Source: an uncultured bacterium
GTDB taxonomy: Bacteria > Verrucomicrobiota > Kiritimatiellia > RFP12 > UBA3636
Direction: 5' to 3'
NCBI GenBank assembly: GCA_902761575.1
Contig: CACWKU010000001.1
Location: forward strand, 22,435 to 86,434
Length of the DNA: 64,000 nt
How positions within the stretch are numbered: position 1 is the stretch's first letter; every line of letters begins with the position of its first letter. Below the pieces are notes generated by a model that saw nothing but the letters and a program-made list of their open reading frames with translations, was not told where the DNA came from and made no database searches. A program made the position numbers and the translations under genes. Below, piece by piece: positions 14,524 through 48,809 of the stretch.

Positions 14524-14532
14524 CCCCCCGCC

Positions 14533-26947: not shown

Positions 26948-27035
26948 GACTTGACTTCTCCTTCTCGCCGCCGTTCGGGCGTCGCACGGACGGTCTCGCG
27001 GAACGGTCGCCCCCGCCCGCGCGCCACGAACCAGA

Positions 27036-27173: not shown

Positions 27174-30100
27174 CTATTCCGGCATGCGCACCCAGACCCG
27201 GAAGAAGCGGCTGTCGGCGTTCGGCGCGGTCCAGACCTCGTTCGTGAGGAAGGGCTTGCCCTCTATGGTGTAGACGCGCTTGGCGCCGAGGTCCGGATGC
27301 CAGGAGATCTCCGGCTCGTCGCCGGGCACGAGGATGTCCGCGAGGAAGCGCGAGAGCGCATCGAGCGGGTTCAGGCCCGCGACGAACTCCTCCCAGAGCG
27401 TGTCGCCCTTGCCCGACGGCAGCGGCTTCAGCGCCTCGTAGCCGCTGGTCGACCCGATGCCGTGGAAGTCGATCCACGCCTCCCATTCGCCCTTCGTCGC
27501 CTCCGGAATCCACTGCACGCAGTCGAGGAAGCCGCGGTCTTCGCCGTCGGCCATTCCGGAGTCCTTCGCGTAGGTCCAGCGCAGCGTGTGCGCCCCCTCC
27601 CCCTCGACGGCGAACGACGCCCGCTCCCACTTCGTCCGCCCGTCGAGACGCGCCTTCTCGACGCCGTCGACGAGAAACGCAAGGTGGTCCCAGTCGCGAT
27701 AGCCGCTGTCGTCGCGCTCGCACGAGGCGCGCCAGCGGAAATCGATCTGTCCCGGTCCTTCGACCGTCGTCTCGATCCAGCTTTCGCCGTTGTCGCCGGG
27801 CGACGCGGAGGTCGCGCGGTGGACGCCGTCCGCCGAGTCCTCGGTCGCCTCGGGAACCCACGGATCGTCGTCCCCGGTCGTGAAGGCGAGCTGCGGCATG
27901 TTGACCGCCGTCGCGAGCCCGAGCGTCGAGCCGAGCGCCGGAACGCCCGCCCCCGAACGGCCCGCGAGGTTCTCCGAGACAACGAAGTAGTAGTAGGTCT
28001 TCCCGGGCTCGACCGTCACGTCGGTCCACGAAAGGCCCTCCGTCGTCCCGAGCTCCTCCGCCGCCGCGAGGTCGGGCGACGTCCCGCGGCAGACGCGGTA
28101 GGAGTCCGCCGTCTCCACGGCGTCCCACGAGAGCGCGATGCCCGCGCCTTCCTGCGCCGCCGCGAGGCCGTCCGGCGCCTGCGCCACGTAGACATGGACG
28201 ATCGTCGCGGTCGCGACCTCGCTCGCCCAATCGCCGCGCACCACGGCGATCGCCTTCACCGTCGTCGTCTCAAGGATCGAAAACTTGACGGAAGTCGCGC
28301 TGTTCGTCGCCGGGTCGGAACCGTCCACCGTGTGGTAGATCTTCGCGTCCGGATCGGTGCACGTGAGCATCACCGACTGCGAGTTCTTGTTCGCGAACTG
28401 CGTTCCGTCCGGCGGATCGATGACGGGCGTCGCCGGTACGCCGTATTCGTAGCAGCCCATGTCCACCGCCGCGTGCGCGACGCGCGGATTGCCGGCGAGG
28501 TCCGTCTTCCCCGCCGCCCACGACGTGTCGCCCGCGTCGACGCACGGCGCCACCGCGCGCACGCGGTAGTCGCCGTTCGCCGCGTCGAAGAAGAGGTCCG
28601 CCGCCGACGCGACGATATTGCTAGTCCCGACGGTTTCCGTGTCGAGGCAGGAATAGTCGACGTTGCACGTCGCGGCATGGACTTCGGTTCCGACCGGTAC
28701 ATTCTCGACGAAATTGCCGACAATGACGCAGTTTGTCGCGACGCATTTTCCGATGGCGCATGCCCCCAGACTAATGGCGTTCGTATTCGCGGCAACGGTG
28801 CAGTTCGCAAGCGAACATTTGTAGGCGGCACTGGGTGCACAACCGCTGTGATCGTCGTTCCAGACGACATTGCCGGCAATCAGGCAGTTCTCCATGTCGG
28901 CTTCGTACGCCGCGCCCCATTTCCGGCTGACATTACCGGTCAAAATGCAGTTCTTCAATGTCGCAGTCAGAACGGCCGACCCCCCACCCGAACAGTATCC
29001 ATTACGGAACATGAATCCTTCCATTGTCACGAGCCCGCGGAGGGTTTCGTAGTAATAGGCGCTCGGATCCGTCGGCTGATACGCCGCCATCTGGATACAG
29101 CGCCGGAGCCCTTGACCGTCGATGATCGTCGTCGCGGGACCGTTTGCGCTTCGAATGCGCAGGTGTGCGCTTTTCCAGTTCACGATGGAACTGGAAGCCT
29201 GCGCATCGCCCGTATAGACGCCGTCCGCCACGACGATTTCGTCGCCGTCCGCCGCCCAGTCGATGGCATTCTGGATGGTCGCCTTCGCCGTTTCCCAGGA
29301 GAGGCCGTCGTTCGCATCGTCGCCCGTCGCCTGCGCGACGTATTGCGTCGCCGCCGCGTAGTGGGTGGCCCATTCGTAGCAACCCATGTCGGTCCCGACG
29401 CCGATCCACCGCGAGTGGCCATCGAGGTCGGTTCCAAGCTTGGCCTCGGTTGTCAGTCCGCCCGCGTCGATGCACGGCGAGCCCGCCGTGAGCCGGTAGT
29501 CGCCGTTCGCCGCGTCGACGAAGAGCGGATCGGCGTCGATGTTGCCCGAGCCGGAGACGGCCGAACCGAAGCAGGAATAGGTCGCGGTGGAATTGTAGAT
29601 ATCGTTTGCGGCTCCGCTCGTGTAGGCGTTTCCGTAGACGATGCAGGATTCGAGCGTGCAGAAGTCGCAACCGCCGCCGCCGGGCTTGCTGGAAGAACCG
29701 TAGACGGCCCGGTTGTCCACAATCGTGCACCGGACCGCATCGCAGCTGCCAAGTCCGCCGCCCGTCGTGGCGGCGACGATGTTGTTCGCCAGATTGTCCG
29801 CAATCAAGCAATCTTCCAGCCGGGAATTCATGGCGCCGCCCCCGCCGGCGGACGAAACGTTGTTGGAAACGATGCATCGAAAGGCAATGCTGCATTGAAG
29901 TCCCCCGCCGTAGCCGCGGAACGAAGGGTCGTCGTCTTTCCCGGCGTAGTTCCCCGTCACGATGCACGCTTCCAGAATTCCGCCGCGAACGCCGGCTCCG
30001 TGGTCGTTCCGGCCGTTCCGCAACGTAAAGCCGACAAGCGTCGTTTTCACGGCATCGGTCCTTTCGGCACCTAGCGTCGCGCAGCGGTTCGTGCCGCCGC

Positions 30101-33100
30101 CGTCGACGATGGTCTTCTCCGCGCCTTCGACGCTGCGGATGACGATGTCCTTGTTCCTTGCGACGAACGGTTCGTAGACGCCGTTCGTGACGAGGACCGT
30201 GTTGCCCGCGACGGTGCGGTCCGCCGCGTTCTGGATCGTCCGCAGCGCGTCGTCCCACGAACGCCCCGTGTTCTCGTCATCGCCGCGTTCCGCGTCGACG
30301 TACCAGACCGTTTCCGCGGGTTCCGGATCTTCGCAGACAAGACGGAAGCCGACGTCGCTGTATTTGGTAGAAGCGCCGTCTTGGATGCGAAAGGCCGAAC
30401 GGCAACGATTGGCCGCGAACTTCCATCCGCCGCCGCGCCTCGAACGATGCGTTCCGGAACCGGCCCCCGCGGGATTGACCGCGGGTCCGCCGTCCAATTC
30501 GGCATACCAGTCGAGGCACCATTCGTAAACGTTGCCGTGCATGTCGAAAAGGCCCCATCGGTTCGGAAGATAGGACCCGACCGCTGCATGGTGGTCGTTC
30601 CCCCGGTTGTCGACGTATCGTCCGAGTTCCGCCAGATTGGCGCTGTAGCCCTCCGCTGATTCCAGATTCTTTCCAGAGTTCAAGGAGGATTCTGTCCCCG
30701 CGCGGCAGGCATATTCCCACTGCGCTTCGGTCGGGAGGTCGAAGCCGTCCAGGCCCGTCTTCGCGCGGAGGACGCCGAGGAAGCTCGAAGCGTCCACGGC
30801 GCTGCTCGCCGGGAAGTTCGTTCCCGCGTCGTCGCCGCGGATCATGTCGTAGGAAACCGTCTCGATCGGGTGGGTTCCTCCGAGATTCTGCGCCACGTTC
30901 GTTCCCATCACGAGTTCCCATTGCTTCTGCGTCACCTCGAAAACGCCGGCGTAGAAGCCGCGCGAGAGCGTGACGCGGTGGAGCGTCTCGTTGTCCTGAC
31001 GGCCTAGCTCGTCCTCCGGGCTGCCCATCCAGAACGAGCCCTCCGGCACATTGCGGAGGACGAGTTTCGTCGTCTTGTATTCCTCGGTCCAGCCGCCCGC
31101 GGGAACGTCGGAGAGGTAGGAGACCGGATAGGAGGTCGCGTTCGTTCCACCCGAGAGGTCGACGACGAGGAAGCGGGTCTCGTCGACCGGATCGATGCCG
31201 AACGGATAGACGAACGTGCCCTCGTAGTTGTTCTTGCCGGTCACGCGGACGCCCGCCGTGCCGACGTCCACGTTGTCGACGTATTCGACGTCGTAGTTCT
31301 CCGCGCCGAGGATGTCCGGCCAGCCGTCGCGGATGTGGACCTCGGGCGTCTTCGGCGTTCCGTCCCACACCTGGTCCGGAACGACGCACATCATCGAGGG
31401 GTCGATCCGCTTCTTCCGGACGGTGAGCGTCGCGGCGTTCGTGACGGCGGGATAGCCCGGCGCCGTCGCGACGACCCAGACCGGATGCTCGCCCGCGTCC
31501 GTGAACGACGGCGCCTCCGCCGTGAACGGGCCTTCCGCGGAAAGACCGTAGAGAATCGTCGCCTCCGCGCCGGGGAAGTCCGCCGTCACGGAGAGCGCGT
31601 TCGGGCCGCCGTTGTAGACGACATCCGTCCCCTCGACCTTGAGCCACGACTCCGGTCCCGCCTCGTAGGCGCCGATGTCCACGTGCGCGCCCTGCACGCG
31701 CGCGTTGCCCCAGAGGTCGGAGTCGCTCACCGCGTTCGCGTCGCTTCCCGCGTCGATGCAGGGCGACGAACCGAGCAGGCGGAAGTCGCCGGCAGCCTCG
31801 TCCGCGAACTTCGGGAACGCGACGATGTTCCCTTCGCCCTCCTTCAGCGACGTGAGGCAGCAGTGGTCGAGCGTGCACGCCGCCACGTCCGCTGCGATGC
31901 CGCCCACCGTGTTCCCCGTCACGATGCAGTTGTAGACCTTGCAGTCGTAGAGCCCTCCGGCGGGAGCCCCGGCAACGGCCTCGTTCCCGATGACCGTGCA
32001 GTTATAGAGGTCGCACTGGTAGGCACCTCCCGCGGCGGCGGTTCCGTCGGACGACAAAGACGCGTTTCCGAGAATCAGGCAGTTTACGAGTTTACAGCCG
32101 CCCGCGCCGCCGACCGTTTTCTCCGCATTCAGGCATTTCGTGGTCGTGCAATCCTGGATGACGCAGTTTTCCACGATACCGTGCGAAACTCCTCCTAGGT
32201 TCGTGAACAAGCCGTTTGTAATCGTAAAACCGACGAGCGTCGCAACGCGATCCGCCGTCCTTCCGTCGAGAGAAGCCGAAAGTTTTGCGCAACGGTATTT
32301 GCCTTCTCCGTCGAGAATCGTCTTTTCCGGTCCGTTCACACTTTTGATCAGGAGCTTGCCGCTGGTAGCATGGCAGTCGAGAACCATGTTTCCCGAGACC
32401 CTTTTGTATGTTCCGTCGTTCACGAGAACCGTGTCCCCGTCGATCGCCTCGTCCACCGTGGATTGGATGGACTTCTTCGCCGCGCTCCAGGAGAGACCGT
32501 CGTTCGAGTCGTTTCCGGAGGCGGCGTCCACGTGCCACGTCACGGGTTCACGGTATTCGTAGCAGCCGGCGTCCACGATTCCGTTCACGATGCGCCGACT
32601 TCCGCGAAGATCGTAATTCGTCGGAACCAATTCGTTCGTACCCGCGTCGACGCACGGCGATTCCGGGCGGAGACGGTAGACGCCGGCCGCGGCGTCGACG
32701 AACGGCGATTCGGAAAGGACGCCGTTGTTCGAGCCAGGAAGAACAACTTCGGCAAACGAGTTTGTGGCGGAAAAACTGGAGGAAACAAGCGATGCGGATC
32801 CTGTTTCGTTGCCGAACACGACGCAGTTGGCCAGGACGGAATCCGAAAACACGGCGCCAGATCCGTCAAAACCGCCATTGTTCGAAAACGTGCAATTGAA
32901 AGCGGTCGAATTCCGGACGAGGCATTGCAAAGCCCTGTTTCCGACGACCAGGCAATTGTCCATTCGGACTGTGTGGAGGACGACTTTGGAGTTCAAAGAC
33001 GTTCCCTTCACAATGCACTTCCTCAGTTTGGTCCAAGCTACTCCTCCGGTGTCTTGATGCAATCCGTTCTGCAACGTGAATCCGTCGAAAAGCAGGCAAT

Positions 33101-33467
33101 GGTCCATCCAGTCATTTTGATGGGCCGTGTTCGTTCCCTTGGCGACGCGGCGCTGACCATCGGCGTCGATGATCGTGACGAGAGGGCCGTCCGTGCTGCG
33201 GACCGTAGCAGAACGCCCATTGGAATTATAGACGGCACCAACGGAGTCCGCCGTCTCCTTGTAGGTTCCCGGGCCGACGAGGATCAAGTCGCCGTCGGAG
33301 CAGGAAGTCACCGCCTTTTGGATCGTTTTGAAGGGCTTTGCGGAAGTGCCTTCGTTCGAGTCGGAACCCGAAGAGGCGGAAACGTACCAGTTCTTCGCGA
33401 ACCCGGAGGGCGCGAAACCGGCGAGAAGAAGAAGGAACGAGACTGCGGGGAGGCGCGAGCGGAGCAT
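27174..33467 (-). CDS. 2097-aa secreted protein: four right-handed parallel beta-helix modules, internal FGE-sulfatase (SUMF1-like) domain, Ig/Fn3-like domains, unknown C-terminal domain
   Basis: Track ORF with signal peptide MLRSRLPAVSFLLLLAGFAPSGFA. Four module starts have the form W(Y/H)V(D/S)A..G(D/N)D.N.G(T/L)SW..A..(T/S)IQ.A.D.A..GD.(I/V)LV, each ending ...FVDAA.GDYRL...SPC(I/V)DAG. The FGE-like stretch includes HGNVYEWCLDWY...RGGGW. Confidence 0.8.
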   Translation of the reverse strand: MLRSRLPAVSFLLLLAGFAPSGFAKNWYVSASSGSDSNEGTSAKPFKTIQKAVTSCSDGDLILVGPGTYKETADSVGAVYNSNGRSATVRSTDGPLVTIIDADGQRRVAKGTNTAHQNDWMDHCLLFDGFTLQNGLHQDTGGVAWTKLRKCIVKGTSLNSKVVLHTVRMDNCLVVGNRALQCLVRNSTAFNCTFSNNGGFDGSGAVFSDSVLANCVVFGNETGSASLVSSSFSATNSFAEVVLPGSNNGVLSESPFVDAAAGVYRLRPESPCVDAGTNELVPTNYDLRGSRRIVNGIVDAGCYEYREPVTWHVDAASGNDSNDGLSWSAAKKSIQSTVDEAIDGDTVLVNDGTYKRVSGNMVLDCHATSGKLLIKSVNGPEKTILDGEGKYRCAKLSASLDGRTADRVATLVGFTITNGLFTNLGGVSHGIVENCVIQDCTTTKCLNAEKTVGGAGGCKLVNCLILGNASLSSDGTAAAGGAYQCDLYNCTVIGNEAVAGAPAGGLYDCKVYNCIVTGNTVGGIAADVAACTLDHCCLTSLKEGEGNIVAFPKFADEAAGDFRLLGSSPCIDAGSDANAVSDSDLWGNARVQGAHVDIGAYEAGPESWLKVEGTDVVYNGGPNALSVTADFPGAEATILYGLSAEGPFTAEAPSFTDAGEHPVWVVATAPGYPAVTNAATLTVRKKRIDPSMMCVVPDQVWDGTPKTPEVHIRDGWPDILGAENYDVEYVDNVDVGTAGVRVTGKNNYEGTFVYPFGIDPVDETRFLVVDLSGGTNATSYPVSYLSDVPAGGWTEEYKTTKLVLRNVPEGSFWMGSPEDELGRQDNETLHRVTLSRGFYAGVFEVTQKQWELVMGTNVAQNLGGTHPIETVSYDMIRGDDAGTNFPASSAVDASSFLGVLRAKTGLDGFDLPTEAQWEYACRAGTESSLNSGKNLESAEGYSANLAELGRYVDNRGNDHHAAVGSYLPNRWGLFDMHGNVYEWCLDWYAELDGGPAVNPAGAGSGTHRSRRGGGWKFAANRCRSAFRIQDGASTKYSDVGFRLVCEDPEPAETVWYVDAERGDDENTGRSWDDALRTIQNAADRTVAGNTVLVTNGVYEPFVARNKDIVIRSVEGAEKTIVDGGGTNRCATLGAERTDAVKTTLVGFTLRNGRNDHGAGVRGGILEACIVTGNYAGKDDDPSFRGYGGGLQCSIAFRCIVSNNVSSAGGGGAMNSRLEDCLIADNLANNIVAATTGGGLGSCDAVRCTIVDNRAVYGSSSKPGGGGCDFCTLESCIVYGNAYTSGAANDIYNSTATYSCFGSAVSGSGNIDADPLFVDAANGDYRLTAGSPCIDAGGLTTEAKLGTDLDGHSRWIGVGTDMGCYEWATHYAAATQYVAQATGDDANDGLSWETAKATIQNAIDWAADGDEIVVADGVYTGDAQASSSIVNWKSAHLRIRSANGPATTIIDGQGLRRCIQMAAYQPTDPSAYYYETLRGLVTMEGFMFRNGYCSGGGSAVLTATLKNCILTGNVSRKWGAAYEADMENCLIAGNVVWNDDHSGCAPSAAYKCSLANCTVAANTNAISLGACAIGKCVATNCVIVGNFVENVPVGTEVHAATCNVDYSCLDTETVGTSNIVASAADLFFDAANGDYRVRAVAPCVDAGDTSWAAGKTDLAGNPRVAHAAVDMGCYEYGVPATPVIDPPDGTQFANKNSQSVMLTCTDPDAKIYHTVDGSDPATNSATSVKFSILETTTVKAIAVVRGDWASEVATATIVHVYVAQAPDGLAAAQEGAGIALSWDAVETADSYRVCRGTSPDLAAAEELGTTEGLSWTDVTVEPGKTYYYFVVSENLAGRSGAGVPALGSTLGLATAVNMPQLAFTTGDDDPWVPEATEDSADGVHRATSASPGDNGESWIETTVEGPGQIDFRWRASCERDDSGYRDWDHLAFLVDGVEKARLDGRTKWERASFAVEGEGAHTLRWTYAKDSGMADGEDRGFLDCVQWIPEATKGEWEAWIDFHGIGSTSGYEALKPLPSGKGDTLWEEFVAGLNPLDALSRFLADILVPGDEPEISWHPDLGAKRVYTIEGKPFLTNEVWTAPNADSRFFRVWVRMPE

Positions 33468-35737: not shown

Positions 35738-36388
35738 TTACTTGACGGTAATGACCGCCGGCTTCCCCGCCGGTTCGTCCGACGGAAGCTCGCGCACCTG
35801 GATGGCGTTGATCAAAGCCTGGCCGCTGTACGAGATCGTGAACTCCTCCGTCGTGGCTTCGGCGGTGAACTGGCAGATCAGCGAACCGCCGTATTCCCAT
35901 CCGGTTCCGGCGAACTTGGCAACCGTCGTTCGGTCCGGCGCGGTCGCCGACTGCGTCGTGTAGTCGTTGCGGAAGGCGACCATCTGGACCAGATACCGCT
36001 TCCCGGATTCCAGATTCTTCAACGCGATCGGCCGGTCCTTGCCGTTTGCCCACCAGCCATTCGACAGCAGATCCTTGTAATCGCCCGACTCGGTGTCGGA
36101 GGGAGGCGACGAAACGGCGTTGCCGGCTCCGCCCGAGGCTTCCCAGACGACGCAGTCCGCCGTATTGACGATTTTGTCGCCGACACCGGCGAACGAAACG
36201 CCGTTGACCGTGTAGTTTCCGCGGGCGTAGGCGTACTTGAGCGTTCCGTCCGTGCGGATCGACGTGCTGCTCGCCGTCAGTGGCGTAGCAGACCACGTGA
36301 CGTCCGTTGCCGCCCCGGCGGGGGCGGCGACGAGCGCGGCGGCGGCCGCGAGGGCGAGGGCGGCGGTTTTCCTGACGATGCGATTCAT
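35738..36388 (-). CDS. small secreted stand-alone malectin-like beta-sandwich (putative carbohydrate-binding) protein
   Basis: Start MNRIVRKTAALALAAAAALVAAPAGA at 36386-36388. Motifs NGWWAN...YLVQMV...INAIQVREL. AAGGAG Shine-Dalgarno site 7 nt upstream. Confidence 0.6.
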   Translation of the reverse strand: MNRIVRKTAALALAAAAALVAAPAGAATDVTWSATPLTASSTSIRTDGTLKYAYARGNYTVNGVSFAGVGDKIVNTADCVVWEASGGAGNAVSSPPSDTESGDYKDLLSNGWWANGKDRPIALKNLESGKRYLVQMVAFRNDYTTQSATAPDRTTVAKFAGTGWEYGGSLICQFTAEATTEEFTISYSGQALINAIQVRELPSDEPAGKPAVITVK

Positions 36389-36476: not shown

Positions 36477-36534
36477 ATCATACCCCCGCGCCCCAGCGGG
36501 CGAGTAGGTTCAAATCGGGCAAAAACGGGTAAAG
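36477..36534 (-). promoter_or_regulatory. promoter of the malectin-like/GH36-like operon: -10 TATGAT plus upstream CTTTACCCGTTTTTGCCCGATTT element
   Basis: rc ATCATA at 36477-36482. 23-nt element at 36512-36534. Confidence 0.55.
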
Positions 36535-36597: not shown

Positions 36598-39500
36598 CTA
36601 CTTGATCCGGTAGACGTGCCGGCTGAAGCCGTCGAAGGCGTCGGAGAAGACGCCGCCCTTCGCCTGGAGGGTGCGGTTCTCGTAGAGGACCTCGACCGTG
36701 GTGTCCTGCGGGACGTCGTCCGGGAGGCGGAACGAGACCCGGGCGTTCGGGTGCGGGTTGACGTTGGCCGTGTAGATGCGGCGCTCGCTCCCGTGCCGGC
36801 GCGTGAGGCAGCGGATGTAGTTCTCGGTCTCGCTCGCGATGGCGCCGCCGCAGAGCTCGTCGGAGCAGAGGAAGTCGACGTTGTCCAGCAGCTCGCGGTT
36901 GATGTCCACGAGCGCGTCGTAGCAGCAGCGCGAGGTGGGCATGTTGACGAACCAGGAGAGGCCCGTCGCGCCGGCGGCGACACAGCCCCAGCACTGCGCG
37001 ACCTGCTCCTTGTAGGTCGGGATCCGCGGATGGAGCGAGTTCTCGCTCTCCATGAAGTACCAGCACGGCTTGCCGGGCGCGATGGAGCGCAGGACGTCGA
37101 CCTTCGAGACGACCATGTCGAGCGTGGTGCCGTCGACGGTCAGGTAGTAGTCGACCATCAGGATGTCGGTCGGGAGCCCCGCGAAGCGCCCGGAGATGCC
37201 GAGCCAGCAGTTGTTCATCTGCACGGGGTTGTAGGGGAAGAGGGCCTTCGTCCGCTTCATGAACGCCTTGCAGTCGTCGGCGTTGCGGTACTCGGGCTCG
37301 TCGAGGACGAGCCAGTTGATCACGTTCGGGCTGTCGAGCATGCCGTACATCTTCCGGCGCGACCAGTCGGTGACGGAGTTGTCCTCCCAGCGCCGGATCT
37401 CGCCCACGTCGTCGAGGGTCTGGCCCTCGCCGGTCCAGATCGTGAACTTCATGCCTTTCTGTGCCGCGTACGCGAGCGTCTTGCGGTTCATCTCGATGTC
37501 GCGGACGTTGAGGTTGTTCTGCAGGTTCAGGTACTTGAACCCGGCGTCGGCGAGGATGTCGACCGGACGCGAGGTGCCGTCGTCCATCGGCCCGTTCTCG
37601 CGGCCGATGAGGCACGGCGAGCTCATGAACACCTTCTCGCCGTCGTGGACGAGCGTGCGGGACCACTGGTTGATCTGCGTCGCGCCCTTCTTGAAGGGCA
37701 GCTTGCGGACCTCGGCCTTCCACTCGCGGCCGAGCGCGCGGACCGTGACGGCGTTGGTGCCGCAGGGCATCCCGGAGATGTCGATCGAGACCTGCTCGAA
37801 GCCGCCCTTGCCGTCCCACGCGCGGAAGTCGGCGGTCCTCTCCTCCATGTAGAAGTCGTAGTGGCCGAGGAGGAGCCCCTCGGGCGGGAGCGGATAGCCG
37901 CAGAGCGCGTTCTCGGCGGGCGTGAGCGGCGCCGTGCGCTCGGGCTTCGCGTGCGGGGTCGGCTTGCCGAGCGCGAAGTTCTCCGCGTCGCCGGACTTCG
38001 GCTTGTACTCCGTCGCGTAGGTCTTCGCGGGGTCGAAGCCGCCGGCCGGCGGGTCGACCATCTCGAGCTGCAGGTCGTCGAGCCAGATCGAGGCCTCGGT
38101 CGTGCGGTCGCGAAGGCCGGGGACGTCGAACCAGACGGGGCTGAAGATGCCGGGCGCGGGCAGGTTGGTCGTCGTGACCTCGTAGCGCGTCCATTCGGTC
38201 GTGAGGTCCACGATCCGGGCGTTGTCGGAGAGCTTCGCCTTGAACTGGACGCCGGGCTCGGACGCCTTCGCCCAGAAGGAGAGGACCGCGCTGCGGCCCT
38301 TCTGCGTGGGCGTGTTCCAGGCGAAGAAGTCGAAGCTGCGGACGAACGGCCCGATGCGCAGCCGGAGCGACTGCTTCCCGGAGTGCCTCTCGGCCGTGTC
38401 GACCATGAAGCACTTGAGGTACTTCTCCTTGTAGTCCTCGATCGAGACCTTCGACATCTCGCAGGAATTGCGGTTGCAGTAGTGCAGCGGCACGCCGTCG
38501 CCGTCGAACTCGAAGCCGGAGTTCGAGATCAGGTTCGGGCTGTCCTCGCCCTTGAGCGCGTAGATCGTGACGCGGCGCACCTCGAAGGGGCACTTGAAGT
38601 TCTCGATGCCGAGCGGGGCCCAGTGCGCGACGCCGTCGAAGCCGACGGTCTTCCTCGGCGTGGGCGCCGTGTAGTAGTTGCCCAGGACGCCGTTGAGGAA
38701 GAAGGCGTAGCCCATCATCGTCTCGCCGATCTTGCGACGCTCGAAGCGGACCGTGACCGGCTCGCCCTCCTTGAAGTTGGCGATCCAGGGGTAGGCGCTG
38801 CGCGTCGGCTGGTCGGCCACCGGCTGGTAGAGGGTCACCCCGTAGCCGTCGCTGCGGACGCCGAACGTGCCGTAGTCGCCGGTCATGACCGCCCAGTGGT
38901 AGTCGCCGTCCTTCGGGTCCTTGATCTCGCTCCACGCGGGGTAGACCGCGATCTCGGCCTCGGCCGCGAACTCGTCCGGCAGCTCGCCCTTCCACTGGAT
39001 GCCGTCGCCGGTGCCGCCGCTCGGGATGCGCACCGCGCCGTCCTTCACCTCGATGTCCTTCTGCGCGTGCCCGCGGAAGCTCCAGCGCTCGGCGAAGACC
39101 TTGGGCTCGGAGAAGTCGTCCTCGAAGATCGGGACCGAGAAGTCGGAGACCGGCCCGCCCGGCGCGCGGGCGGCCCCGGCGGCGTTCGCGGGCTCCTTCT
39201 TCTCGTAGCGCGGCCCCGCCTCGAGCGGCACGTCCGTCGCGCTTGCGTAGAACTTCCCCGTGACCTCCTCGTAGAGGCCGGCGACGCCGCCCTTCACGAC
39301 CGGGACGAAGCGCGCGAGCGGCTTTCCGTCCCGGTAGAACTCCGCCCCGTAGAGCGCGAGGTCGTAGCAGGCGTAGGACTTCACCGACCCGTCGTCGCAG
39401 GTCATCCCGAAGAACGAGACCGGGACCTTGCCGGCCGCGGTGCGCTCGCCCTCGAGCTTCATGTCGAAGCTGCCCCAGGTGACGTGCCGGCCGTCGTAGA

Positions 39501-39927
39501 CGATCGACACGCGGGTTCCGATGGCGGAGTCGTTCACCTCCTGGAGGCCGCAGTGGATCCACTTCTCGCGGCTCTTGCGGCCCAGGCTCGCGAACGTCTG
39601 GTAGGCCTGCGCCTCGTGCCCGCCGAGCGCGAGCTGGAAGAGGTCGCGGAAGCCCTCCGCGTCCTGCGCGTCCTCCTGGCCGAAGAAGACCGTCGTGTTC
39701 TTCGCGTGGTCGAACTTCCCGCCGAAGATCTGGTTGAACGGGCCGTCGAACCGGACGTCCATCCGGAACGTCGTCCCGGGCTGCGGCACGAGGTCGGTCT
39801 TCACGCAGCTGCCGTGCGTGGACTTGACGTATTCGACGCGGTAGTCGAAGTCCGCGGCGGCGGCGGACACGGCGGCGGCGGCGAGGCAGGCCGCGACGGC
39901 GCGGGCGTTTCGTTCGATGGCGTTCAT
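36598..39927 (-). CDS. 1109-aa secreted putative glycoside hydrolase of unrecognised family with CBM4/9-like domain; paralog of 43645..46467
   Basis: Track ORF with a signal peptide. C-terminal ~400 aa shared with 43645..46467 (MPCGTNAVTVRA.GR.W, TIWTGE/ILWTGD, PVQMNN, CW(Y/F)F, YENRTL). Confidence 0.55.
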   Translation of the reverse strand: MNAIERNARAVAACLAAAAVSAAAADFDYRVEYVKSTHGSCVKTDLVPQPGTTFRMDVRFDGPFNQIFGGKFDHAKNTTVFFGQEDAQDAEGFRDLFQLALGGHEAQAYQTFASLGRKSREKWIHCGLQEVNDSAIGTRVSIVYDGRHVTWGSFDMKLEGERTAAGKVPVSFFGMTCDDGSVKSYACYDLALYGAEFYRDGKPLARFVPVVKGGVAGLYEEVTGKFYASATDVPLEAGPRYEKKEPANAAGAARAPGGPVSDFSVPIFEDDFSEPKVFAERWSFRGHAQKDIEVKDGAVRIPSGGTGDGIQWKGELPDEFAAEAEIAVYPAWSEIKDPKDGDYHWAVMTGDYGTFGVRSDGYGVTLYQPVADQPTRSAYPWIANFKEGEPVTVRFERRKIGETMMGYAFFLNGVLGNYYTAPTPRKTVGFDGVAHWAPLGIENFKCPFEVRRVTIYALKGEDSPNLISNSGFEFDGDGVPLHYCNRNSCEMSKVSIEDYKEKYLKCFMVDTAERHSGKQSLRLRIGPFVRSFDFFAWNTPTQKGRSAVLSFWAKASEPGVQFKAKLSDNARIVDLTTEWTRYEVTTTNLPAPGIFSPVWFDVPGLRDRTTEASIWLDDLQLEMVDPPAGGFDPAKTYATEYKPKSGDAENFALGKPTPHAKPERTAPLTPAENALCGYPLPPEGLLLGHYDFYMEERTADFRAWDGKGGFEQVSIDISGMPCGTNAVTVRALGREWKAEVRKLPFKKGATQINQWSRTLVHDGEKVFMSSPCLIGRENGPMDDGTSRPVDILADAGFKYLNLQNNLNVRDIEMNRKTLAYAAQKGMKFTIWTGEGQTLDDVGEIRRWEDNSVTDWSRRKMYGMLDSPNVINWLVLDEPEYRNADDCKAFMKRTKALFPYNPVQMNNCWLGISGRFAGLPTDILMVDYYLTVDGTTLDMVVSKVDVLRSIAPGKPCWYFMESENSLHPRIPTYKEQVAQCWGCVAAGATGLSWFVNMPTSRCCYDALVDINRELLDNVDFLCSDELCGGAIASETENYIRCLTRRHGSERRIYTANVNPHPNARVSFRLPDDVPQDTTVEVLYENRTLQAKGGVFSDAFDGFSRHVYRIK

Positions 39928-39966: not shown

Positions 39967-41121
39967 CTAGAGCCCGAGCTCCTTCGCCTGCTTGGAGGCG
40001 ACGCGCTCGGATTCGGCGGCGGCCTTCACGCGGTCGATCTGGAGGCCGAAGTCGCCGCTCTCCGCGTGGTCGCGGTCGGCGATCGGCTCGTCGCCGAAGC
40101 TCGTCGCCATGATCGAGAAGATGCGCGCGAAGTTGCCGTCGCAGGAGCTGAAGTGCGTGTCGTTCTCGTTGAGGCGGTTGGTGAGCACCACCTCGACGGC
40201 GTCGAGGCCCGGGTCGATCAGGAGGAAGCACCCCGTGGCGCCGGCGTGGCCGACGGCCTCCATCGTGTTCACCTCGCCGAAGTACTGGCCGAAGCCGACG
40301 TAGCCGGACTTGATGAAGAACGCCGGCGTGCGGTTGAACTCGGGCCTGAGGCAGCGGCGGAAGAGCGCGTCGGCACCCTGCGGCGTGAGGATGCCGGCCT
40401 TGCGCGTGCGGCGGATGTCGAGCAGGTGCCGGCCGAACTTCACGAGGTCCGGCGCGGTGATGTGAAGCCCCGACTGCCCCTGGTGCGCGGCGAAGGCGGA
40501 GTGCTCCATGCCGAGCGGGCGGAAGATGCGGTCGCGCGCGAGGTCGGCGACGTCCGCGGCGCCGGTGACCTTCTCGCAGATCTCGGCGAGGATGTCGTAG
40601 CCCTGCGACATGTAGCGGAACTTCTCGTTCACCTCGAAGTCCTGGTACATCGTGGCGTAGAACTCGTCGTGGCGCTTCTCATCCACGGCCTTCGCGACGT
40701 GCCCGGTGCGGTTGCGCCAGCCCGAGGTGTGCGTCATCAGGTTGATGATCGGCACGTTCTCGCCGGGGAACTCCGGAATGTACTTCCTCACGTAGTCGTT
40801 GAGGGAGAGCTTGCCCTCCTCCGAGAGCTGCATCAGCAGCGTCGCGGTGAAGACCTTGGTGATCGAGGCGACGTGGAGGGGCGTGTTCTCGTCGAACCCC
40901 TCCCAGCCCTTCTGCGCGACGAACCGGTAGCGCGTCTCGCCGTGCTGCTCGTAGACGCAGCTCATGCACTTGAGGGCGCCGCCCTCGAACTCGCTGGCGA
41001 GGAACGCGTCCACGCGGGACTTGGCGTCGGCGCCGTCCGCCGCGAACAGCGATCCGGCGAGCAGGGAGGTCGTTCCGACCGCGATGGCGCGGACGGCGTG
41101 GTTCCGAACGATGCGTTTCAT
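39967..41121 (-). CDS. secreted serine hydrolase, beta-lactamase/transpeptidase fold (esterase-like)
   Basis: Track ORF. SxxK motif ASITKVFTA. Confidence 0.7.
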   Translation of the reverse strand: MKRIVRNHAVRAIAVGTTSLLAGSLFAADGADAKSRVDAFLASEFEGGALKCMSCVYEQHGETRYRFVAQKGWEGFDENTPLHVASITKVFTATLLMQLSEEGKLSLNDYVRKYIPEFPGENVPIINLMTHTSGWRNRTGHVAKAVDEKRHDEFYATMYQDFEVNEKFRYMSQGYDILAEICEKVTGAADVADLARDRIFRPLGMEHSAFAAHQGQSGLHITAPDLVKFGRHLLDIRRTRKAGILTPQGADALFRRCLRPEFNRTPAFFIKSGYVGFGQYFGEVNTMEAVGHAGATGCFLLIDPGLDAVEVVLTNRLNENDTHFSSCDGNFARIFSIMATSFGDEPIADRDHAESGDFGLQIDRVKAAAESERVASKQAKELGL

Positions 41122-41316: not shown

Positions 41317-43515
41317 CTACTCTTCCGCGAAATCGATCTTCCAGCGGAAGAAGAGCCGGGGCGGGCTGCCGCCGGCGGCGGGCTTCCAGGTGCCGTCGCC
41401 GCCGTCGTACGCCATCGGAACCAGATTCTCGTCGGACCAGTCCGCAAGGTCTTCGGTGGCTTGCACCGTCAACGCCGCCCCCTCGGTGTTCACCGGCTCC
41501 GGAATCGTGACGGACGGATTGCCGTCCTCATCGAAGCCGATGTCGAGCAGCGGCTCGGTTAGGTCTGCGGGGCCGATCGAGGGGTCGATGTCGAAGACAT
41601 ACCGCACGCCGGCCGGGATTCCGTTCACCATATCTTCCGGTTTCGGCATGTCTTCCGGTTTCGGTTCGTCGGTAATGCCAACGTCATTCAGCCAGAGCTC
41701 GTACGCGCTGAAGAACGTCCGCAGGTACGGATACGTCTCTTCGTCGATCTTCCAGACGTCGACGAAGTCGAGGGCTGTGAAGGACTCTTTCCGCTGCATC
41801 TCCTCGTCGCCGAGCGGCGTGATGCCGGCGTAGTCGTCGGAGCCGCTACTCGTGCCGGCGGCCTTCAGGCCGTTCTCGGTGTCTTCATAGTAGGAACCCG
41901 TGACGAGACCGGAACTGGCCAGGCCGACGAACGCGCCGCGATAGTGCCCACCATCGCTCGAGACGTAGCTGTAGCACCAGGAGGTGTCGATTCGGGCCGC
42001 CTTCGACACGCCGCCCGCGAAGCCGCCGACATTGTCGCCACCATTGCCGCCGTAGCCGTCGCTGCTATCCACTGACGATTGGGCGCTGGAGTCCGCGATG
42101 AAGCCGCCGCCGTGGTTGCCGACGAAGCCGCCCGTGTACGACTTGCCGGACTCGTTCGCCACATAACTTTCCACGCAGCAGCGGAGAATGACGGGCGCGT
42201 CTGCGGTGTAGCCGACGAAACCGCCGGCGTTGACGCTGTTTGTATTCCAGACTTCTCCGACGAACCAGCAGCCGTCCACTAGCGACTTGGAGTCGATCTT
42301 GCCCGCGAGACCGCCGACGCCGACGTCCTCCAATCCGGAGTCGGCCGGACCGCCGGTGACATAACCCTCCTCCACTTGCACGCCGCTCACGCGGCCGCCG
42401 TTGATCTTGCCGAAGAGTCCCGCATACTTGTCCGTGGTGTCGATGTAGAAGTTGCTGATCTTGTGGTTCTGTCCGTAGAACTCGCCTTTGAACGGGGTTC
42501 TGTAGTTGCCGATGGGCTCGATGGTCTCGCCGTCGAAGTCGATGTCCGCCGTCAGCACATAGCTGCCCGAGAGGTTGTTCGTGACGGCGAGCAGTTCCTC
42601 GGGAGTCGAAATCGGAATCATCGCGCTGGACTTGGCGCGTTTCGGCGCTTCCGGCCACTTGGCGGAGCGTGCCTTTATGTCCGCCTGCGTGAGCCTGCCG
42701 CCCGTGATGGCCGGGTCGTTCCCGCAGAACGGACGCGGCCCGTTGGCGTAGGCCGAAACCGCGCAGTTGACATTCGTTCCTCTCACGTGGTGGCCGATGA
42801 ACGACCCAATGTCGCCGCCCGTGCCCCACACGGCGCCGGAGCACCAGCAGTCGCTGATCGTCGCATCGTCGTGGGCGAGCCGCCCGACGAAGCCGCCGTA
42901 GTAGCTGGCGGCGGAGCGCACGTCGCCGCGCGCCACGCAGTTGGAGATCACGGCTGGCGCATAAACGTAGCCGATGAATCCGCCCGCCATGCCGGAACCG
43001 CTGACGAAGCCGTCCGCACGGCAGTCGACGATTCGATTGGTCGCGCTGCCGCCGGCGCAGGCCCCGACCAGACCTCCGGCGTAGGAGTTGGTCGCCGCGA
43101 TCTCGACCGTCGCGATGCAGTTGCTGATGACCGTTCCGCCCGTGATGCATCCGACGAGACCGCCGACGTACTGCTTGCCCGCGACCGTTCCCGAGACGGA
43201 AACACGCTTGATCGTCGCATTGCTCGCGCAGCCGAAGAGCCCGCGATAGTCGCTGCCCGACAGGCTGTTCGTGCAGAAGAGGTTGCGGATGGCGCGGTCG
43301 TTGCCGTTGAACGTGCCGGTGAACGGCGCCGAATCGGTGCCGATGGGCGTCCAGTCCGCCCCGCCGAGGTCGATGTCCGAGCCAAGCTCGTAGGAGCCGG
43401 CGAGGTTCTCCGCGATCGCCGCGAACCCCTCGCGGGTGGTGACGAGCGTGGGCTCGGCGACCGCGTGCGCTGCCGCGAAGGCGAAGAGCAGGGGAAGAAG
43501 GGGACGGTGCTTCAT
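41317..43515 (-). CDS. secreted GLUG-motif repeat protein
   Basis: Track ORF. Many YxGG(L/F)(V/A)G repeats (YVGGLVG, YAGGLVG, NAGGFVG, NVGGFAG). Confidence 0.6.
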   Translation of the reverse strand: MKHRPLLPLLFAFAAAHAVAEPTLVTTREGFAAIAENLAGSYELGSDIDLGGADWTPIGTDSAPFTGTFNGNDRAIRNLFCTNSLSGSDYRGLFGCASNATIKRVSVSGTVAGKQYVGGLVGCITGGTVISNCIATVEIAATNSYAGGLVGACAGGSATNRIVDCRADGFVSGSGMAGGFIGYVYAPAVISNCVARGDVRSAASYYGGFVGRLAHDDATISDCWCSGAVWGTGGDIGSFIGHHVRGTNVNCAVSAYANGPRPFCGNDPAITGGRLTQADIKARSAKWPEAPKRAKSSAMIPISTPEELLAVTNNLSGSYVLTADIDFDGETIEPIGNYRTPFKGEFYGQNHKISNFYIDTTDKYAGLFGKINGGRVSGVQVEEGYVTGGPADSGLEDVGVGGLAGKIDSKSLVDGCWFVGEVWNTNSVNAGGFVGYTADAPVILRCCVESYVANESGKSYTGGFVGNHGGGFIADSSAQSSVDSSDGYGGNGGDNVGGFAGGVSKAARIDTSWCYSYVSSDGGHYRGAFVGLASSGLVTGSYYEDTENGLKAAGTSSGSDDYAGITPLGDEEMQRKESFTALDFVDVWKIDEETYPYLRTFFSAYELWLNDVGITDEPKPEDMPKPEDMVNGIPAGVRYVFDIDPSIGPADLTEPLLDIGFDEDGNPSVTIPEPVNTEGAALTVQATEDLADWSDENLVPMAYDGGDGTWKPAAGGSPPRLFFRWKIDFAEE

Positions 43516-43644: not shown

Positions 43645-46467
43645 CTATGGCGCCGGATGGATGCGGTAGAGGTGGCGGTAGTGCCCGGGATAGAAGTCGG
43701 CGAAGGAGCCGTCCGCGAGCGGGAGGGTGCGGTTCTCGTAGAGGACCTCGACGGTGCCGGCGCGCGGGGCGTCGGGCGGGAGCGTGAAGGTCACGGCCTC
43801 GAGCGGGTCGGCGTCGATGTTGCACGAGAAGATATACCAGTCGTCGCCGCACTTCGAGGTGCGGTGGCGGAGGAGGTCCGGCCCGACAGAGGCGCGCGCG
43901 GGCTCGCAGACCTCCTCGCTCAGGATCTTGTCCTTGAGCTCCTGTGCCTCGCGGTTGAAGTCGACCATCGCGCGCCAGTTCGCCTCGGAGCCGACCATGT
44001 TCACGAACCACGTGACGCCGGAGCAGCCGGCGCAGATCGCGCCCCAGCACTGCGCGGTCTGCTCGGCGTAGGAGGGCTGCTTGTAGTGGATCGAGTTCAT
44101 CCCCGCGAGGAAGAACCAGCACGGGACGCCCTCGCGCGCCTTGAGCATCTCGTCGACGTTGCGCAGGATCTGGTCGACGGTGCCGAACTCGGCGGCGGTG
44201 AGATAGGCGTCGAGCATGAAGACGTCGGTCCGCAGGTCGGCGAACCGGCTCGGGAAGCCGAACGTCGTGTTGTTCATCTGCACCGGCGTGTAGGGATAGT
44301 GCCTCTTCTCCTCGATCATGAAGTCGCGCACCTCGTCGCTCGGGCGGGAGAGCTCGGGCTCGTCGGTCGCGACGCGGCTCACGATGTTGTCGAAGTCCTT
44401 CAGCCGCTCGCGCGTCTCGGCGCGCGTCTCGGTGGCGCCGTCGCGGTCGCCCGTCCAGAGGATGAAGTCCATCCCGATCTTCCGCCCGTACTCGAGCATC
44501 GCGATCGTCCGGTCGGTGCCCGCCTTGTCGGAGAAGGTGCAGACGTGCGCGTAGCGGAAGCCGCGCGCCTTCATCGCGTCGAGCATCGCGAAGCGGCCGT
44601 CCTCGCGGGGCGGGTTCTCGCGGACGACGAGGCAGTTGGCCGCCATCAGGACCTTCTCCCCTCCCCTCTCGAGGCAGCGCGCGAAGCGGTTGATCTGCGT
44701 GGCGCCCCTCCAGTACGGGAGCTTCACGACCTCGACGGGCCAGTCGCGGCCGTGCGCGCGGACCGTGACGGCGTTCGTGCCGCAGGGCATGCCGCGGATG
44801 TCGAGCGCGACCTCCTCGAGGCGGCCCTCCTCGTCCCAGATGCGCCAGCGCGCCTCGGGCTCGCGCATGTAGAAGTCGAGGCGGCCGAGGACGACCGGCT
44901 CCGGCGCGGCCTTCTTCGCGGCGGCGGCGCGCGCCCACTTCGCGTGGACCTCGGGCGGCAGGTCGAGCGAGGCCCAGAAGGCGTCGTCGCGGAAGTCGCC
45001 GTTCTTGGAGTAGGAGGTCCCGGGGCACTGCGGGTTCTCCCCGTGGCGGTCGTTGCGGCCGAGGTTGAAGAGCCAGTGCGCGTCCATGCCGCGCTCCGCG
45101 AGGTCCGCGAAGGGGACGGTGACGAGGTACTCGACCGCGCCGCCCGCGTCGCGCGCCTGCACGGTCCAGGAGCCGTCCCAGGTCTTGTCCTCGCCGTAGG
45201 CGTCGGCGCGGCAGCCGTTCGGCGCGCAGAAGAGGTGGTAGTTCTTCTTCTCCTCCGTCGGGCGCAGCAGCACCTCCACGGAGTCGCGGATGCAGATCTC
45301 GGTCGCGTCCTTGAAGTAGGGCGCGTGGCCGATCTCCGCGGGATCCTCGCCGAAGTTGCGGAAGCCGATGTAGAGGCGGTCGTCGTCGCACGCGAGGAAG
45401 GCCTGCGTGCGCTGGACCGGCTCCTCGCGCTTCACGTAGAACCGGCCGGCGTCGGCCGCGTGAGCCTCCCACGAGGAAAGATCGACGGTGGGCCGCACGC
45501 CCGCGGGGAGCTTTTTCACCCGAACGGTCGGCGGGCGCTCCGCCTTCTCCTGCCGCCCGAAGCGCGTGGCGTCGAGGTCGCTCGGACGCCACTGCGTCGC
45601 CGCGTCGCCGAACTCGAGCTGGAGGTCGTCGAGCCAGATGCAGCCGTCGTAGCGCGACGGATTTCGCACCTCGAACTGGACGGGGCTGAAGAGGCCTGGC
45701 GCCGGCATGTTCGTCGTCGCGAGCTCGTAGCGGGCCCACTCGGTCGAGAGCGCGAACGTGCGCCGCTCGGGGCCGAGCGACACGGTGATCTCCATCCCGG
45801 GCCTCTCCGCCTTCATCCAGCCCGAGAACACCCCGTGGGCACCCTTGCGCGTCGCCGTGCGCCACGGGTAGAACGACACGTTCGCGCAGTACGGCCGCAC
45901 CGCGAGGCGGAACGACTGCCTGCCCGAGTGCTTCTCCGCGGTGTCCACCGCGAAGCCCTTCGTCCACTCCTCGTACTCCGCGCCGCCGTAGTGGCGCCAG
46001 TCGAACGCGCCGCGGTTGCAGAAATAGGGCGGGACGCCGTCCTCGTCGAACTCGAAGCCGGAGTTCACGATGAGGTTCGGCGAGGCGTCGGCGTCCTCCG
46101 GGAGCGAGACCACGACGTCGTCGATCAGGCGCGGGGCCGCGCCCCGCGCCTCGAAGACGACGGCCGGGCTCTTCGCCCGCTCGCGCTCCTCGCGGCGAGG
46201 CGCGCGCTCCTCGCCCTCGACCCACTCCAGGACGTATTTCTCGGGCACGGCGCCGCGCCACGTCGCCTTCGCGCCGGGCGAGACGACGAGCCGGCCGCCC
46301 TCGCTGCGGATCTCGCCGTCCGCGCGCCAGTGCTCGGCGAGCGTCTGGCTCGTGGCGAAGTCGTCGGAGAAGACGGAGATCCCGGCCGCCGGAGCGGACG
46401 GCGCGGCCGCGGCCGCGAGCAGGACGAGGGCCGCCGGGAGGCGGGCGTTCCGGAAAGTCGCTTTCAT
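43645..46467 (-). CDS. 940-aa secreted putative glycoside hydrolase of unrecognised family with CBM4/9-like domain; paralog of 36598..39927
   Basis: Track ORF with a signal peptide. Shared C-terminal catalytic-like domain and central NSGFEFD.DGVP..CNR...VDTAE.HSG.QS.RL module. Confidence 0.55.
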   Translation of the reverse strand: MKATFRNARLPAALVLLAAAAAPSAPAAGISVFSDDFATSQTLAEHWRADGEIRSEGGRLVVSPGAKATWRGAVPEKYVLEWVEGEERAPRREERERAKSPAVVFEARGAAPRLIDDVVVSLPEDADASPNLIVNSGFEFDEDGVPPYFCNRGAFDWRHYGGAEYEEWTKGFAVDTAEKHSGRQSFRLAVRPYCANVSFYPWRTATRKGAHGVFSGWMKAERPGMEITVSLGPERRTFALSTEWARYELATTNMPAPGLFSPVQFEVRNPSRYDGCIWLDDLQLEFGDAATQWRPSDLDATRFGRQEKAERPPTVRVKKLPAGVRPTVDLSSWEAHAADAGRFYVKREEPVQRTQAFLACDDDRLYIGFRNFGEDPAEIGHAPYFKDATEICIRDSVEVLLRPTEEKKNYHLFCAPNGCRADAYGEDKTWDGSWTVQARDAGGAVEYLVTVPFADLAERGMDAHWLFNLGRNDRHGENPQCPGTSYSKNGDFRDDAFWASLDLPPEVHAKWARAAAAKKAAPEPVVLGRLDFYMREPEARWRIWDEEGRLEEVALDIRGMPCGTNAVTVRAHGRDWPVEVVKLPYWRGATQINRFARCLERGGEKVLMAANCLVVRENPPREDGRFAMLDAMKARGFRYAHVCTFSDKAGTDRTIAMLEYGRKIGMDFILWTGDRDGATETRAETRERLKDFDNIVSRVATDEPELSRPSDEVRDFMIEEKRHYPYTPVQMNNTTFGFPSRFADLRTDVFMLDAYLTAAEFGTVDQILRNVDEMLKAREGVPCWFFLAGMNSIHYKQPSYAEQTAQCWGAICAGCSGVTWFVNMVGSEANWRAMVDFNREAQELKDKILSEEVCEPARASVGPDLLRHRTSKCGDDWYIFSCNIDADPLEAVTFTLPPDAPRAGTVEVLYENRTLPLADGSFADFYPGHYRHLYRIHPAP

Positions 46468-46497: not shown

Positions 46498-46555
46498 ATC
46501 CTACCACACCGTCCCGAGGGGCGGCTAGGTACGCCGGGGCCTGAAAGCGGTAAAA
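46498..46555 (-). promoter_or_regulatory. promoter of 43645..46467: -10 TAGGAT plus upstream TTTTACCGCTTTC element
   Basis: rc ATCCTA at 46498-46503. Element CGGTAAAA at 46548-46555. Confidence 0.45.
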
Positions 46556-48756: not shown

Positions 48757-48809
48757 GGGTTGAAGGGGCTGTCCTTTCGTGGTTCGGGGTGGTTTGTGTT
48801 CAACGCGTA

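Follow-up and report, generated by a model that had tools for sequence, protein, structure and literature searches.

T1 and T2 of an uncultured Kiritimatiellia bacterium: a candidate glycoside hydrolase family with a GH42-like barrel and a variable strand-7 position

Glycosidases of clan GH-A usually carry an asparagine before the acid/base glutamate, where it contacts the C2 substituent of the substrate, and use a strand-7 carboxylate of the barrel as the nucleophile. The Asp-Glu enzymes of glycoside hydrolase (GH) families GH20 and GH123 work by neighbouring-group participation. The GH123/DUF4091 superfamily of β-N-acetylgalactosaminidases combines a β-sandwich with a TIM barrel, conserves DE, Tyr, Gly and Trp residues and uses substrate-assisted catalysis (PMC11087588). 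Here we compare with such systems two large proteins, T1 and T2, encoded in a 64,000-nucleotide stretch of DNA from an uncultured bacterium of the Kiritimatiellia (contig CACWKU010000001.1, positions 22,435 to 86,434; hereafter the window, in whose coordinates all features are given). Our best explanation, which we hold with moderate confidence as a whole, is that a rumen or gut Kiritimatiellae bacterium secretes T1 and T2 as carbohydrate-active proteins built of several modules, that their genes share a transcript with those of a GLUG-motif protein and of a β-lactamase-fold hydrolase, and that their C-terminal units represent a GH-A-type, GH42-like family that would likely act by nucleophile-free, neighbouring-group catalysis.

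Fold and family relationships of the catalytic unit

T1 (36598..39927, 1109 residues) and T2 (43645..46467, 940 residues) are both read from the minus strand, at the positions where an earlier model's reading of the DNA, made without database searches (the sequence-only reading), had placed them. The window is ~68% G+C, so spurious open reading frames (ORFs) are frequent in it; both of these have gene-like codon-position GC, with a third-position GC (GC3) of 0.99 in T1 and 0.97 in T2 and a second-position GC of 0.45-0.49. The paralogy that the same reading had proposed is borne out by two strong BLASTP segments, one over the C-terminal ~430 residues (T1 682-1108 against T2 522-936, 42% identity, E 6e-105) and one over a central module of ~165 residues (T1 463-651 against T2 129-303, 47% identity, E 3e-45), and every motif that it had listed is present in the alignment of the two proteins (FYM.E, GMPCGTNAVTVRA, WTG(E/D), DEPE, PVQMNN, CW(Y/F)F, FVNM and YENRTL). 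A six-frame tblastn search of the window found no third copy. Each N-terminus resembles a Sec signal peptide (MNAIERNARAVAACLAAAAVSAAAA, followed by DF, in T1 and MKATFRNARLPAALVLLAAAAAPSAPAAG in T2), which would fit the secretion that had been proposed.

The AlphaFold2 model of the T1 C-terminal unit has a predicted local distance difference test score (pLDDT) of 77.8, and that of full-length T1 a pLDDT of 83.9 with a predicted template modelling (TM) score of 0.69. Both models agree on a β-sandwich, a (β/α)8 barrel and a final β-sandwich, which occupy residues 685-775, 787-1020 and 1038-1108 of the T1 catalytic unit (residues 682-1109, 36601..37884); the unit of T2 covers residues 522-940 (43648..44904). 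Among PDB folds, with table values in brackets, the matches were the GH42 β-galactosidases 3tts (19.7) and 1kwk (17.7), the GH164 β-mannosidase 6t5o (17.0), the GH140 apiosidase 8t9w (15.8), the GH42 entry 5xb7 (15.7) and the DUF4038/GH5 entry 4qfu (14.7), and Foldseek returned merely generic TIM-barrel-plus-β-sandwich glycosidases at TM ≤ 0.5. A profile of 30 diverse family members matched PDB sequences of GH2 (E 1e-7), GH158 (8e-7), GH5 (2e-6) and GH42 (3e-5), covering the barrel in part. Weak Pfam matches occur among 46 distant relatives: Glyco_hydro_2_C (PF02836) in four, all at E ≥ 1.7e-4, Glyco_hydro_42 in two (best 1.5e-4) and Cellulase in one. T1 and T2 themselves have no match at E ≤ 1 in Pfam or NCBIfam and none among PDB sequences by direct search, and a profile built from T1 orthologues and close relatives alone found nothing in the PDB. 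On the fold and the remote profile matches together, the catalytic unit very probably has a GH-A-type glycosidase barrel; in the models this barrel is structurally closest to the GH42 β-galactosidases. The TIM-barrel glycosidase fold that had been guessed at from the letters of the DNA is what the models and the fold matches return.

Structural nearness does not extend to membership of GH42. Identity to the GH42 β-galactosidases and α-L-arabinopyranosidases (3tts, 1kwk, 5xb7) is just 10-13%, and four features speak against membership, beginning with the hidden Markov model (HMM): Pfam PF02449 (Glyco_hydro_42) matches neither T1 nor T2; the Asn-Glu pair after strand 4 is Asp-Glu in the family (Asp in 161/161); the strand-7 glutamate nucleophile is not conserved; and neither the Pfam Glyco_hydro_42M trimerisation domain nor the GH42 C-terminal domain was found in T1, T2 or the 46 relatives, the family barrel being flanked by an N-terminal and a C-terminal β-sandwich, with a single one after the barrel. 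When the profile is compared with sequences, GH2 (β-glucuronidases and LacZ-type enzymes), GH158 and GH5 match best (E 1e-7 to 2e-6); in these alignments the family DEP aligns with their N-E-P and the strand-6 tyrosine aligns too. These matches span just strands 2-6 or 7 of the barrel, however, and there is no conserved family glutamate where the T-E-(Y/F)-G nucleophile motif of these enzymes falls; the Pfam models of GH2, GH5 and GH42 have no match in T1 or T2 at E ≤ 1.

In possible mechanism the nearest families are GH123 and GH20. With GH123/DUF4091 the family shares an N-terminal β-sandwich joined to a TIM barrel, an adjacent Asp and Glu (here the predicted catalytic pair), a tyrosine and, it appears, the lack of an enzyme nucleophile (PMC11087588), as well as a glycine at the entry of strand 8 with an aromatic residue 3-4 positions on; the comparison is one of residue inventory, not of structural equivalence. 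The likeness to GH20 and GH163/GH185 is looser (PMC10570127). DUF4091 (PF13320) matched neither T1 and T2 nor any of the 46 relatives. Membership of GH123/DUF4091, GH163/GH185 (DUF4838) or GH20 was considered for the Asp-Glu motif and set aside, as there was no HMM or fold signal for it; with no sequence or fold signal shared beyond the barrel, the likeness to GH123 and GH20 would be convergent.

The sequence-only reading had put the domain forward as a candidate novel GH family, to be given up on a clear HMM assignment to an established one. No such assignment was found in the HMM libraries searched: Pfam and NCBIfam give nothing at E ≤ 1, and the profile search of the PDB gave partial matches no stronger than 1e-7. 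Judged against Pfam, NCBIfam and the PDB as proxies for CAZy, the domain is a well-supported candidate for a novel GH family, and it apparently forms a distinct, unclassified family whose structure is of the GH-A class but whose set of catalytic residues is unusual. The domain may of course already sit in a recent CAZy family that lacks a Pfam or NCBIfam model and a solved structure, and so not be novel, given that CAZy outpaces Pfam in adding families and that proxies stood in for it here. We consider this unlikely, because Pfam (2025), NCBIfam (June 2026), PDB sequences (2026) and PDB folds (to April 2026) all came up empty, the named relatives at NCBI and JGI are all "hypothetical protein", and full-text literature searches yielded no paper that describes the family.

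Active-site residues and candidate mechanisms

Conservation was tabulated over about 165 homologues, in a slice numbering to which 681 is added to reach T1 numbering. The pair D195 and E196 is invariant (161/161 each), as is Y247 (163/163), and the table further holds D245 (160/163), N224 (155/163), E293 (164/168), E331 (167/168), G305 (163/169) and G308 (160/169), with an aromatic residue at 311-312. In T1 the invariant pair is D876-E877 (37297..37302, minus strand), at the end of barrel strand 4, and its counterpart in T2 is D702-E703 (44359-44364, minus strand). HMMER alignments lay the Asp-Glu-Pro motif of the family on the Asn-Glu-Pro acid/base motif of GH2, and E877 in T1 and E703 in T2 are the predicted general acid/base. 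After strand 6, D926-Y927-Y928 of T1 (37144..37152, minus strand) form a DxY motif common to GH42 and GH2, in which the invariant Y928 aligns on the tyrosine of both families (D-x-Y in GH42). The strand-5 asparagine and the strand-8 aromatics are also retained. Of the hallmarks of clan GH-A, the (β/α)8 barrel is present and the strand-4 glutamate is found by alignment, and the strand-7 glutamate is the one that is not conserved.

The register at strand 7 was taken from a sub-profile of strands 4-8, whose PDB matches were weak (E ≥ 0.05) and served solely to set the GH42 and GH2 residue register. In this alignment the GH42 nucleophile falls in the column of T1 E960 (37048..37050, minus strand), at the C-terminal end of strand 7 (residues 955-960), and T2 has Ala788 at that position (44104-44106, minus strand). 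Across the family the column holds V (43), Q (35), E (26), A (19) and S (17). A register shifted by one, as the GH2 alignment suggests, would make the column wholly hydrophobic (L/I/V/M). Close to T1 the position varies as well: in an alignment of 28 sequences, T1 orthologues together with the nearest relatives, 18 have Glu, five Ala, four Cys and one Gln, while the flanking KPCWYF..SENSLH stays unchanged. Clustering limits glutamate at this position to the immediate relatives of T1 and a few scattered others. With Ala or Cys in 9/28, E960 was downgraded as the nucleophile of T1. Because it varies so freely, the strand-7 residue is, as judged from the alignments, not an essential nucleophile. 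What the alignments show, then, is a family that appears to keep an otherwise GH42-like active site, with Asn replaced by Asp beside the acid/base and with no fixed enzyme nucleophile.

Further conserved residues lie in the two flanking β-sandwiches and in helix 8. The pre-barrel β-sandwich of T1 and its homologues has a conserved YYM(D/N)EPEA (T1 residues 690-699, window about 37831-37860), the last β-sandwich carries an ENR...D...RHxY signature that is at least 95% conserved, and E1012 in helix 8 does not vary either. Their role may be to hold the domains in contact, as conserved residues at the interface do in GH123-type enzymes.

On the conservation of the Asp-Glu pair and its partners, the members of the family are probably real glycosidases, and we regard the chance that their catalysis is non-canonical as about even. 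Since the strand-7 nucleophile is not conserved, we propose that the glycosidic bond would be cut without an enzyme carboxylate nucleophile. The glutamate of Asp-Glu-Pro (E877 in T1, E703 in T2) would serve as general acid/base; the attack on C1 would come from a C2 substituent of the substrate, such as a 2-acetamido group, by neighbouring-group participation, which is our favoured guess; the invariant aspartate (D876 in T1), in place of the usual asparagine, would polarise the C2 group; and Tyr928 would stabilise the intermediate. The neighbouring-group route is favoured because the nucleophile seems dispensable and the residue that contacts C2 in GH-A enzymes is now an aspartate. That the group is specifically a 2-acetamido group, the simplest case, is a tentative suggestion only. 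To our knowledge this would be the first GH-A-type lineage with neighbouring-group or other nucleophile-free catalysis. The fuller proposal, a PVC-clade family that arose from a GH42/clan GH-A barrel, dropped the strand-7 nucleophile, exchanged Asn-Glu for Asp-Glu, turned to nucleophile-free catalysis and merits a new CAZy family, is speculative and in our judgement possible but doubtful.

Several observations weigh against the neighbouring-group proposal. E974 of T1 is an invariant acid whose place, the first turn of helix 7, could bring it within range of the active site. T1 has a glutamate at the canonical nucleophile position, E960, and so could itself still act canonically. The esterase, α-galactosidase-like and feruloyl-esterase-like genes nearby resemble a plant cell-wall context and not one of N-acetylhexosamines, which is a mild objection. 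In addition, the roles that we infer for D876, E877, Y928, E960 and E974 rest on alignment and not on spatial arrangement.

Other non-canonical routes would also do without a strand-7 acid. The family could be inverting, with D926 or E974 as the base; Tyr928 could be the nucleophile, as in sialidases, on an anionic sugar; or a 1,2-anhydro-sugar could form as in GH99, with D876 deprotonating O2. The invariant Asp-Glu pair, the tyrosine, D926 and E974 accord with such chemistry, and the esterase-rich, pectin- or hemicellulose-like context fits acidic or unusual plant sugars better than N-acetylhexosamines. We know of no precedent for an inverting, Tyr-nucleophile or 1,2-anhydro route in a GH-A/GH42-type barrel, which counts against these options, and we rate them, taken together, as unlikely.

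Equally unlikely, in our estimate, is that T1 works as a normal retaining glycosidase of clan GH-A, E877 being its acid/base and E960 its nucleophile, and that T2 and the other members without the glutamate are inactive or specialised offshoots. E960 does sit at the C-terminal end of predicted strand 7 and aligns with the GH42 nucleophile, and the FMES around it appears to resemble the GH42 nucleophile motif. Against this stand the Ala or Cys found at the position in nine of the 28 closest sequences, whose neighbouring residues are otherwise intact, and the V, Q, E, A or S found there family-wide in the very proteins in which DE, DxY, N and E293 are invariant, a pattern not expected if most members were dead enzymes. 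Least probable of all is a pseudo-enzyme, in which a C-terminal unit derived from a GH would bind glycans without cutting them, as part of a surface or adhesin-type protein: the canonical nucleophile is lost, an operon partner has GLUG and M26-N-like adhesin-type motifs and β-sandwich modules are numerous, but the acid/base glutamate and the adjacent aspartate are 100% conserved in about 160 sequences with identity down to 20-25%, the genomic neighbours are glycosidases and esterases, and modules of the carbohydrate-binding type are usually attached to enzymes.

Module layout and distribution of the family

Both proteins place the catalytic unit behind a series of β-sandwich modules. In T1 (36598..39927, minus strand throughout) a putative signal peptide is followed by an N-terminal β-sandwich, a LamG-like domain, a CBM4_9-like module and the GH42-like catalytic unit. 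The putative Sec signal peptide (residues 1-25, 39853..39927) was read from the sequence and coincides with a low-pLDDT helix at residues 3-20 of the model. The N-terminal β-sandwich (residues 28-240, 39208..39846) is modelled with a pLDDT of about 90, has no family match and is not present in T2. A second β-sandwich (residues 265-457, 38557..39135) is LamG/DUF1080-like and has weak similarity to residues 30-81 of T2; relatives match 3keto-disac_hyd or Laminin_G_3 in the region N-terminal of their CBM-like modules, which is probably the counterpart of this domain. The CBM4_9-like jelly-roll module (residues 463-625, 38053..38541) is common to T2, with 47% identity. T2 (43645..46467, minus strand) has a putative signal peptide, a short LamG-like remnant, the CBM4_9-like module (residues 129-285, 45613..46083), a CBM9-like domain (residues ~320-515, 44923..45510) that matches the family consensus and is not in T1, and a catalytic unit as in T1.

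The central module recurs in 103 of the collected homologues. Its description as a carbohydrate-binding module (CBM) of the 4/9 type in the sequence-only reading is borne out indirectly. Against Pfam CBM_4_9 (PF02018), whose gathering cut-off is 25.9 bits, the homologous modules in relatives reach 28.0 and 22.7 bits; directly, the T1 module reaches 13.2 bits (E 0.12) and the T2 module has no CBM_4_9 match at E ≤ 1. Because relatives reach the CBM_4_9 gathering score and the T1 and T2 copies do not, the CBM4/9-like identity holds by transitive homology only. Pfam matches in the 46 relatives include CBM9_1 (PF06452) in 25, 3keto-disac_hyd in ten and CBM_4_9 in eight. In those checked, CBM9_1 falls at the position that corresponds to residues 320-515 of T2, a region with no Pfam CBM9 match of its own. 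The usual order in the family is a LamG/DUF1080-like domain, the CBM4_9-like module, a CBM9-like domain and the catalytic unit; T2 follows it with a shortened first domain, and T1 is without the CBM9-like domain and gains the confidently modelled N-terminal β-sandwich. The CBM4_9-like module, the CBM9-like domain of T2 and the LamG-like domains would presumably anchor the enzyme to polysaccharide.

An exhaustive HMMER scan of 1.84 billion cluster representatives (50%-identity level), with a C-terminal-region profile built from two sequences as the query, found 1333 family members at E ≤ 1e-3, 301 at E ≤ 1e-10 and 79 at E ≤ 1e-30. The domain is C-terminal in nearly all of them, in host proteins of 850-1150 residues, and the family comes mostly from Kiritimatiellia, Victivallales and Phycisphaerae; its main home is the PVC group (Planctomycetota-Verrucomicrobiota-Chlamydiota with related lineages). 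A narrower alignment run against GTDB genomes gave 53 loci in Kiritimatiellia (rumen, goat and human gut), Victivallales/Lentisphaerae and Phycisphaeraceae, of which the nearest, at 98% identity, are in the rumen metagenome-assembled genomes RUG13889 and SRR873595_bin.42. Several family copies per genome are common. Members that bear a source name, from NCBI or JGI, are all called "hypothetical protein"; when the C-terminal domain was used in two word-indexed searches for homologues, once as a family profile, the matches were few, uninformative and without any other name, and a full-text literature search found no paper on the T1/T2 family. In other Kiritimatiellia (L005/L014, L007/L015 and L011/L012) a T1 orthologue and a T2-like paralogue, ~42% identical to the T1 catalytic unit, share a contig at a distance of ~28-35 kb. 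In the window, T1 and T2 are 3.7 kb apart, inside one operon-like unit.

Operon, neighbouring genes and biological context

On the minus strand the order is a promoter-like motif, T2, a GLUG/M26-N-like gene, a β-lactamase-fold gene, T1, a hairpin, a second copy of the motif, a small secreted ORF and a melibiase-like gene. The first gene after T2 (41317..43515) encodes a 732-residue protein with a GLUG motif and an M26-N-like region, and the next (39967..41121), which a 39-bp gap separates from T1, a β-lactamase-fold serine hydrolase of a family that recurs beside T1/T2 homologues at eight loci. The composite motif TTTAC-N46-TAGGAT lies just upstream of T2 (46498..46554) and recurs downstream of T1 (36477..36533), ahead of the small secreted ORF; a GC-rich hairpin (GTGGCGGGG/CCCCGCCAC) directly follows the T1 stop codon and precedes this second copy. 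The small ORF itself (about 215 residues, 35740-36386, minus strand) stands between T1 and the melibiase-like gene and had been missed by a codon-bias filter.

The sequence-only reading had claimed a TTTAC-type promoter that drives operons headed or ended by T1 and T2, and the element proves to be real in its recurrence. In the general form TTTAC-N44-48-TAnGAT it has four copies on the minus strand (10884-10940, 19592-19647, 36477-36533 and 46498-46554), against 0.02 expected by shuffling, with an inner CCTA(C/G)C ~20 nt after TTTAC; the two copies inspected, at 36477-36533 and 46498-46554, are intergenic and just upstream of minus-strand genes. The layout fits the operon claimed, with a promoter-like motif upstream of T2 and with T1 followed by the hairpin and the next motif copy. 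The -35 and -10 boxes of a sigma-70 promoter lie far closer together than this, and a scan for sigma-70 promoter and terminator consensus was negative. The element may be a lineage-specific promoter or regulator site.

Among the 53 loci of the GTDB scan, the neighbours of family genes are Gly-rich or β-helix proteins (16 loci), DUF1559 or prepilin-type proteins (12), β-lactamase-fold hydrolases (eight), GH27 α-galactosidases with NPCBM (seven), DUF4886/DUF6259 proteins (six), phytase-like esterases, AraC-family regulators and LacI-family regulators (five each) and GH20 fused to a metallophosphatase (four). The 12 loci with a small DUF1559/prepilin-type (N_methyl) protein near the family gene belong to Victivallales and Phycisphaerae (L030, L032, L036, L041-L043, L045, L046, L048, L050, L051 and L053); in L030 and L036, which were inspected, it lies directly upstream.

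Elsewhere in the window, a dense run of putative carbohydrate esterases (3-16236) includes a phytase-like esterase, a feruloyl esterase of the BD-FAE type and three GDSL/SGNH proteins, one of which is 1879 residues long with added DLH, CE2_N and Ig-like domains. Such a density of esterases suggests a heavily esterified glycan as the target. The context is as expected of glycan-degradation genes and does not pinpoint a particular glycan. The 2097-residue product of 27174-33467 (minus strand) is an unusual fusion of pectate-lyase-like β-helix segments (DUF1565, Pel9A-like and chondroitinase B-like) with an internal FGE-sulfatase (formylglycine-generating-enzyme-like) domain and CHB_HEX_C/Fn3-associated domains. 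A 901-residue ORF at 50410-53115 (minus strand) joins SBP_bac_1 and BPD_transp_1 in an apparent fusion of binding protein and ABC permease, and two minus-strand ORFs, 23786-27076 (1096 residues) and 59787-61496 (569 residues), combine gene-like codon bias with zero Pfam matches. Upstream of T2 come a metallophosphoesterase-like gene with a GNHEFD motif (46567-47483), an NrtR-type Nudix regulator (47481-48212) and an isochorismatase/nicotinamidase-like gene (48229-48822), all on the minus strand; the last two form an NAD-salvage pair that appears to have no link with the glycan genes.

Kiritimatiellia, Victivallales and Phycisphaerae specialise in breaking down glycans, and a large share of the proteins that they secrete is unannotated. 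New GH families turn up regularly, and should the T1/T2 proteins be canonical or inactive, the finding shrinks to another distant GH-A family. If the nucleophile was indeed dropped and the asparagine exchanged for aspartate, the family would be a clear natural case of a retaining glycosidase scaffold switching mechanism and would be useful as a template for transglycosidase engineering. The T1/T2 family is large, ecologically relevant and mechanistically odd, and the assignment of an activity to its more than 1300 representatives would fill a recurring annotation blank in rumen, gut and marine carbon turnover.

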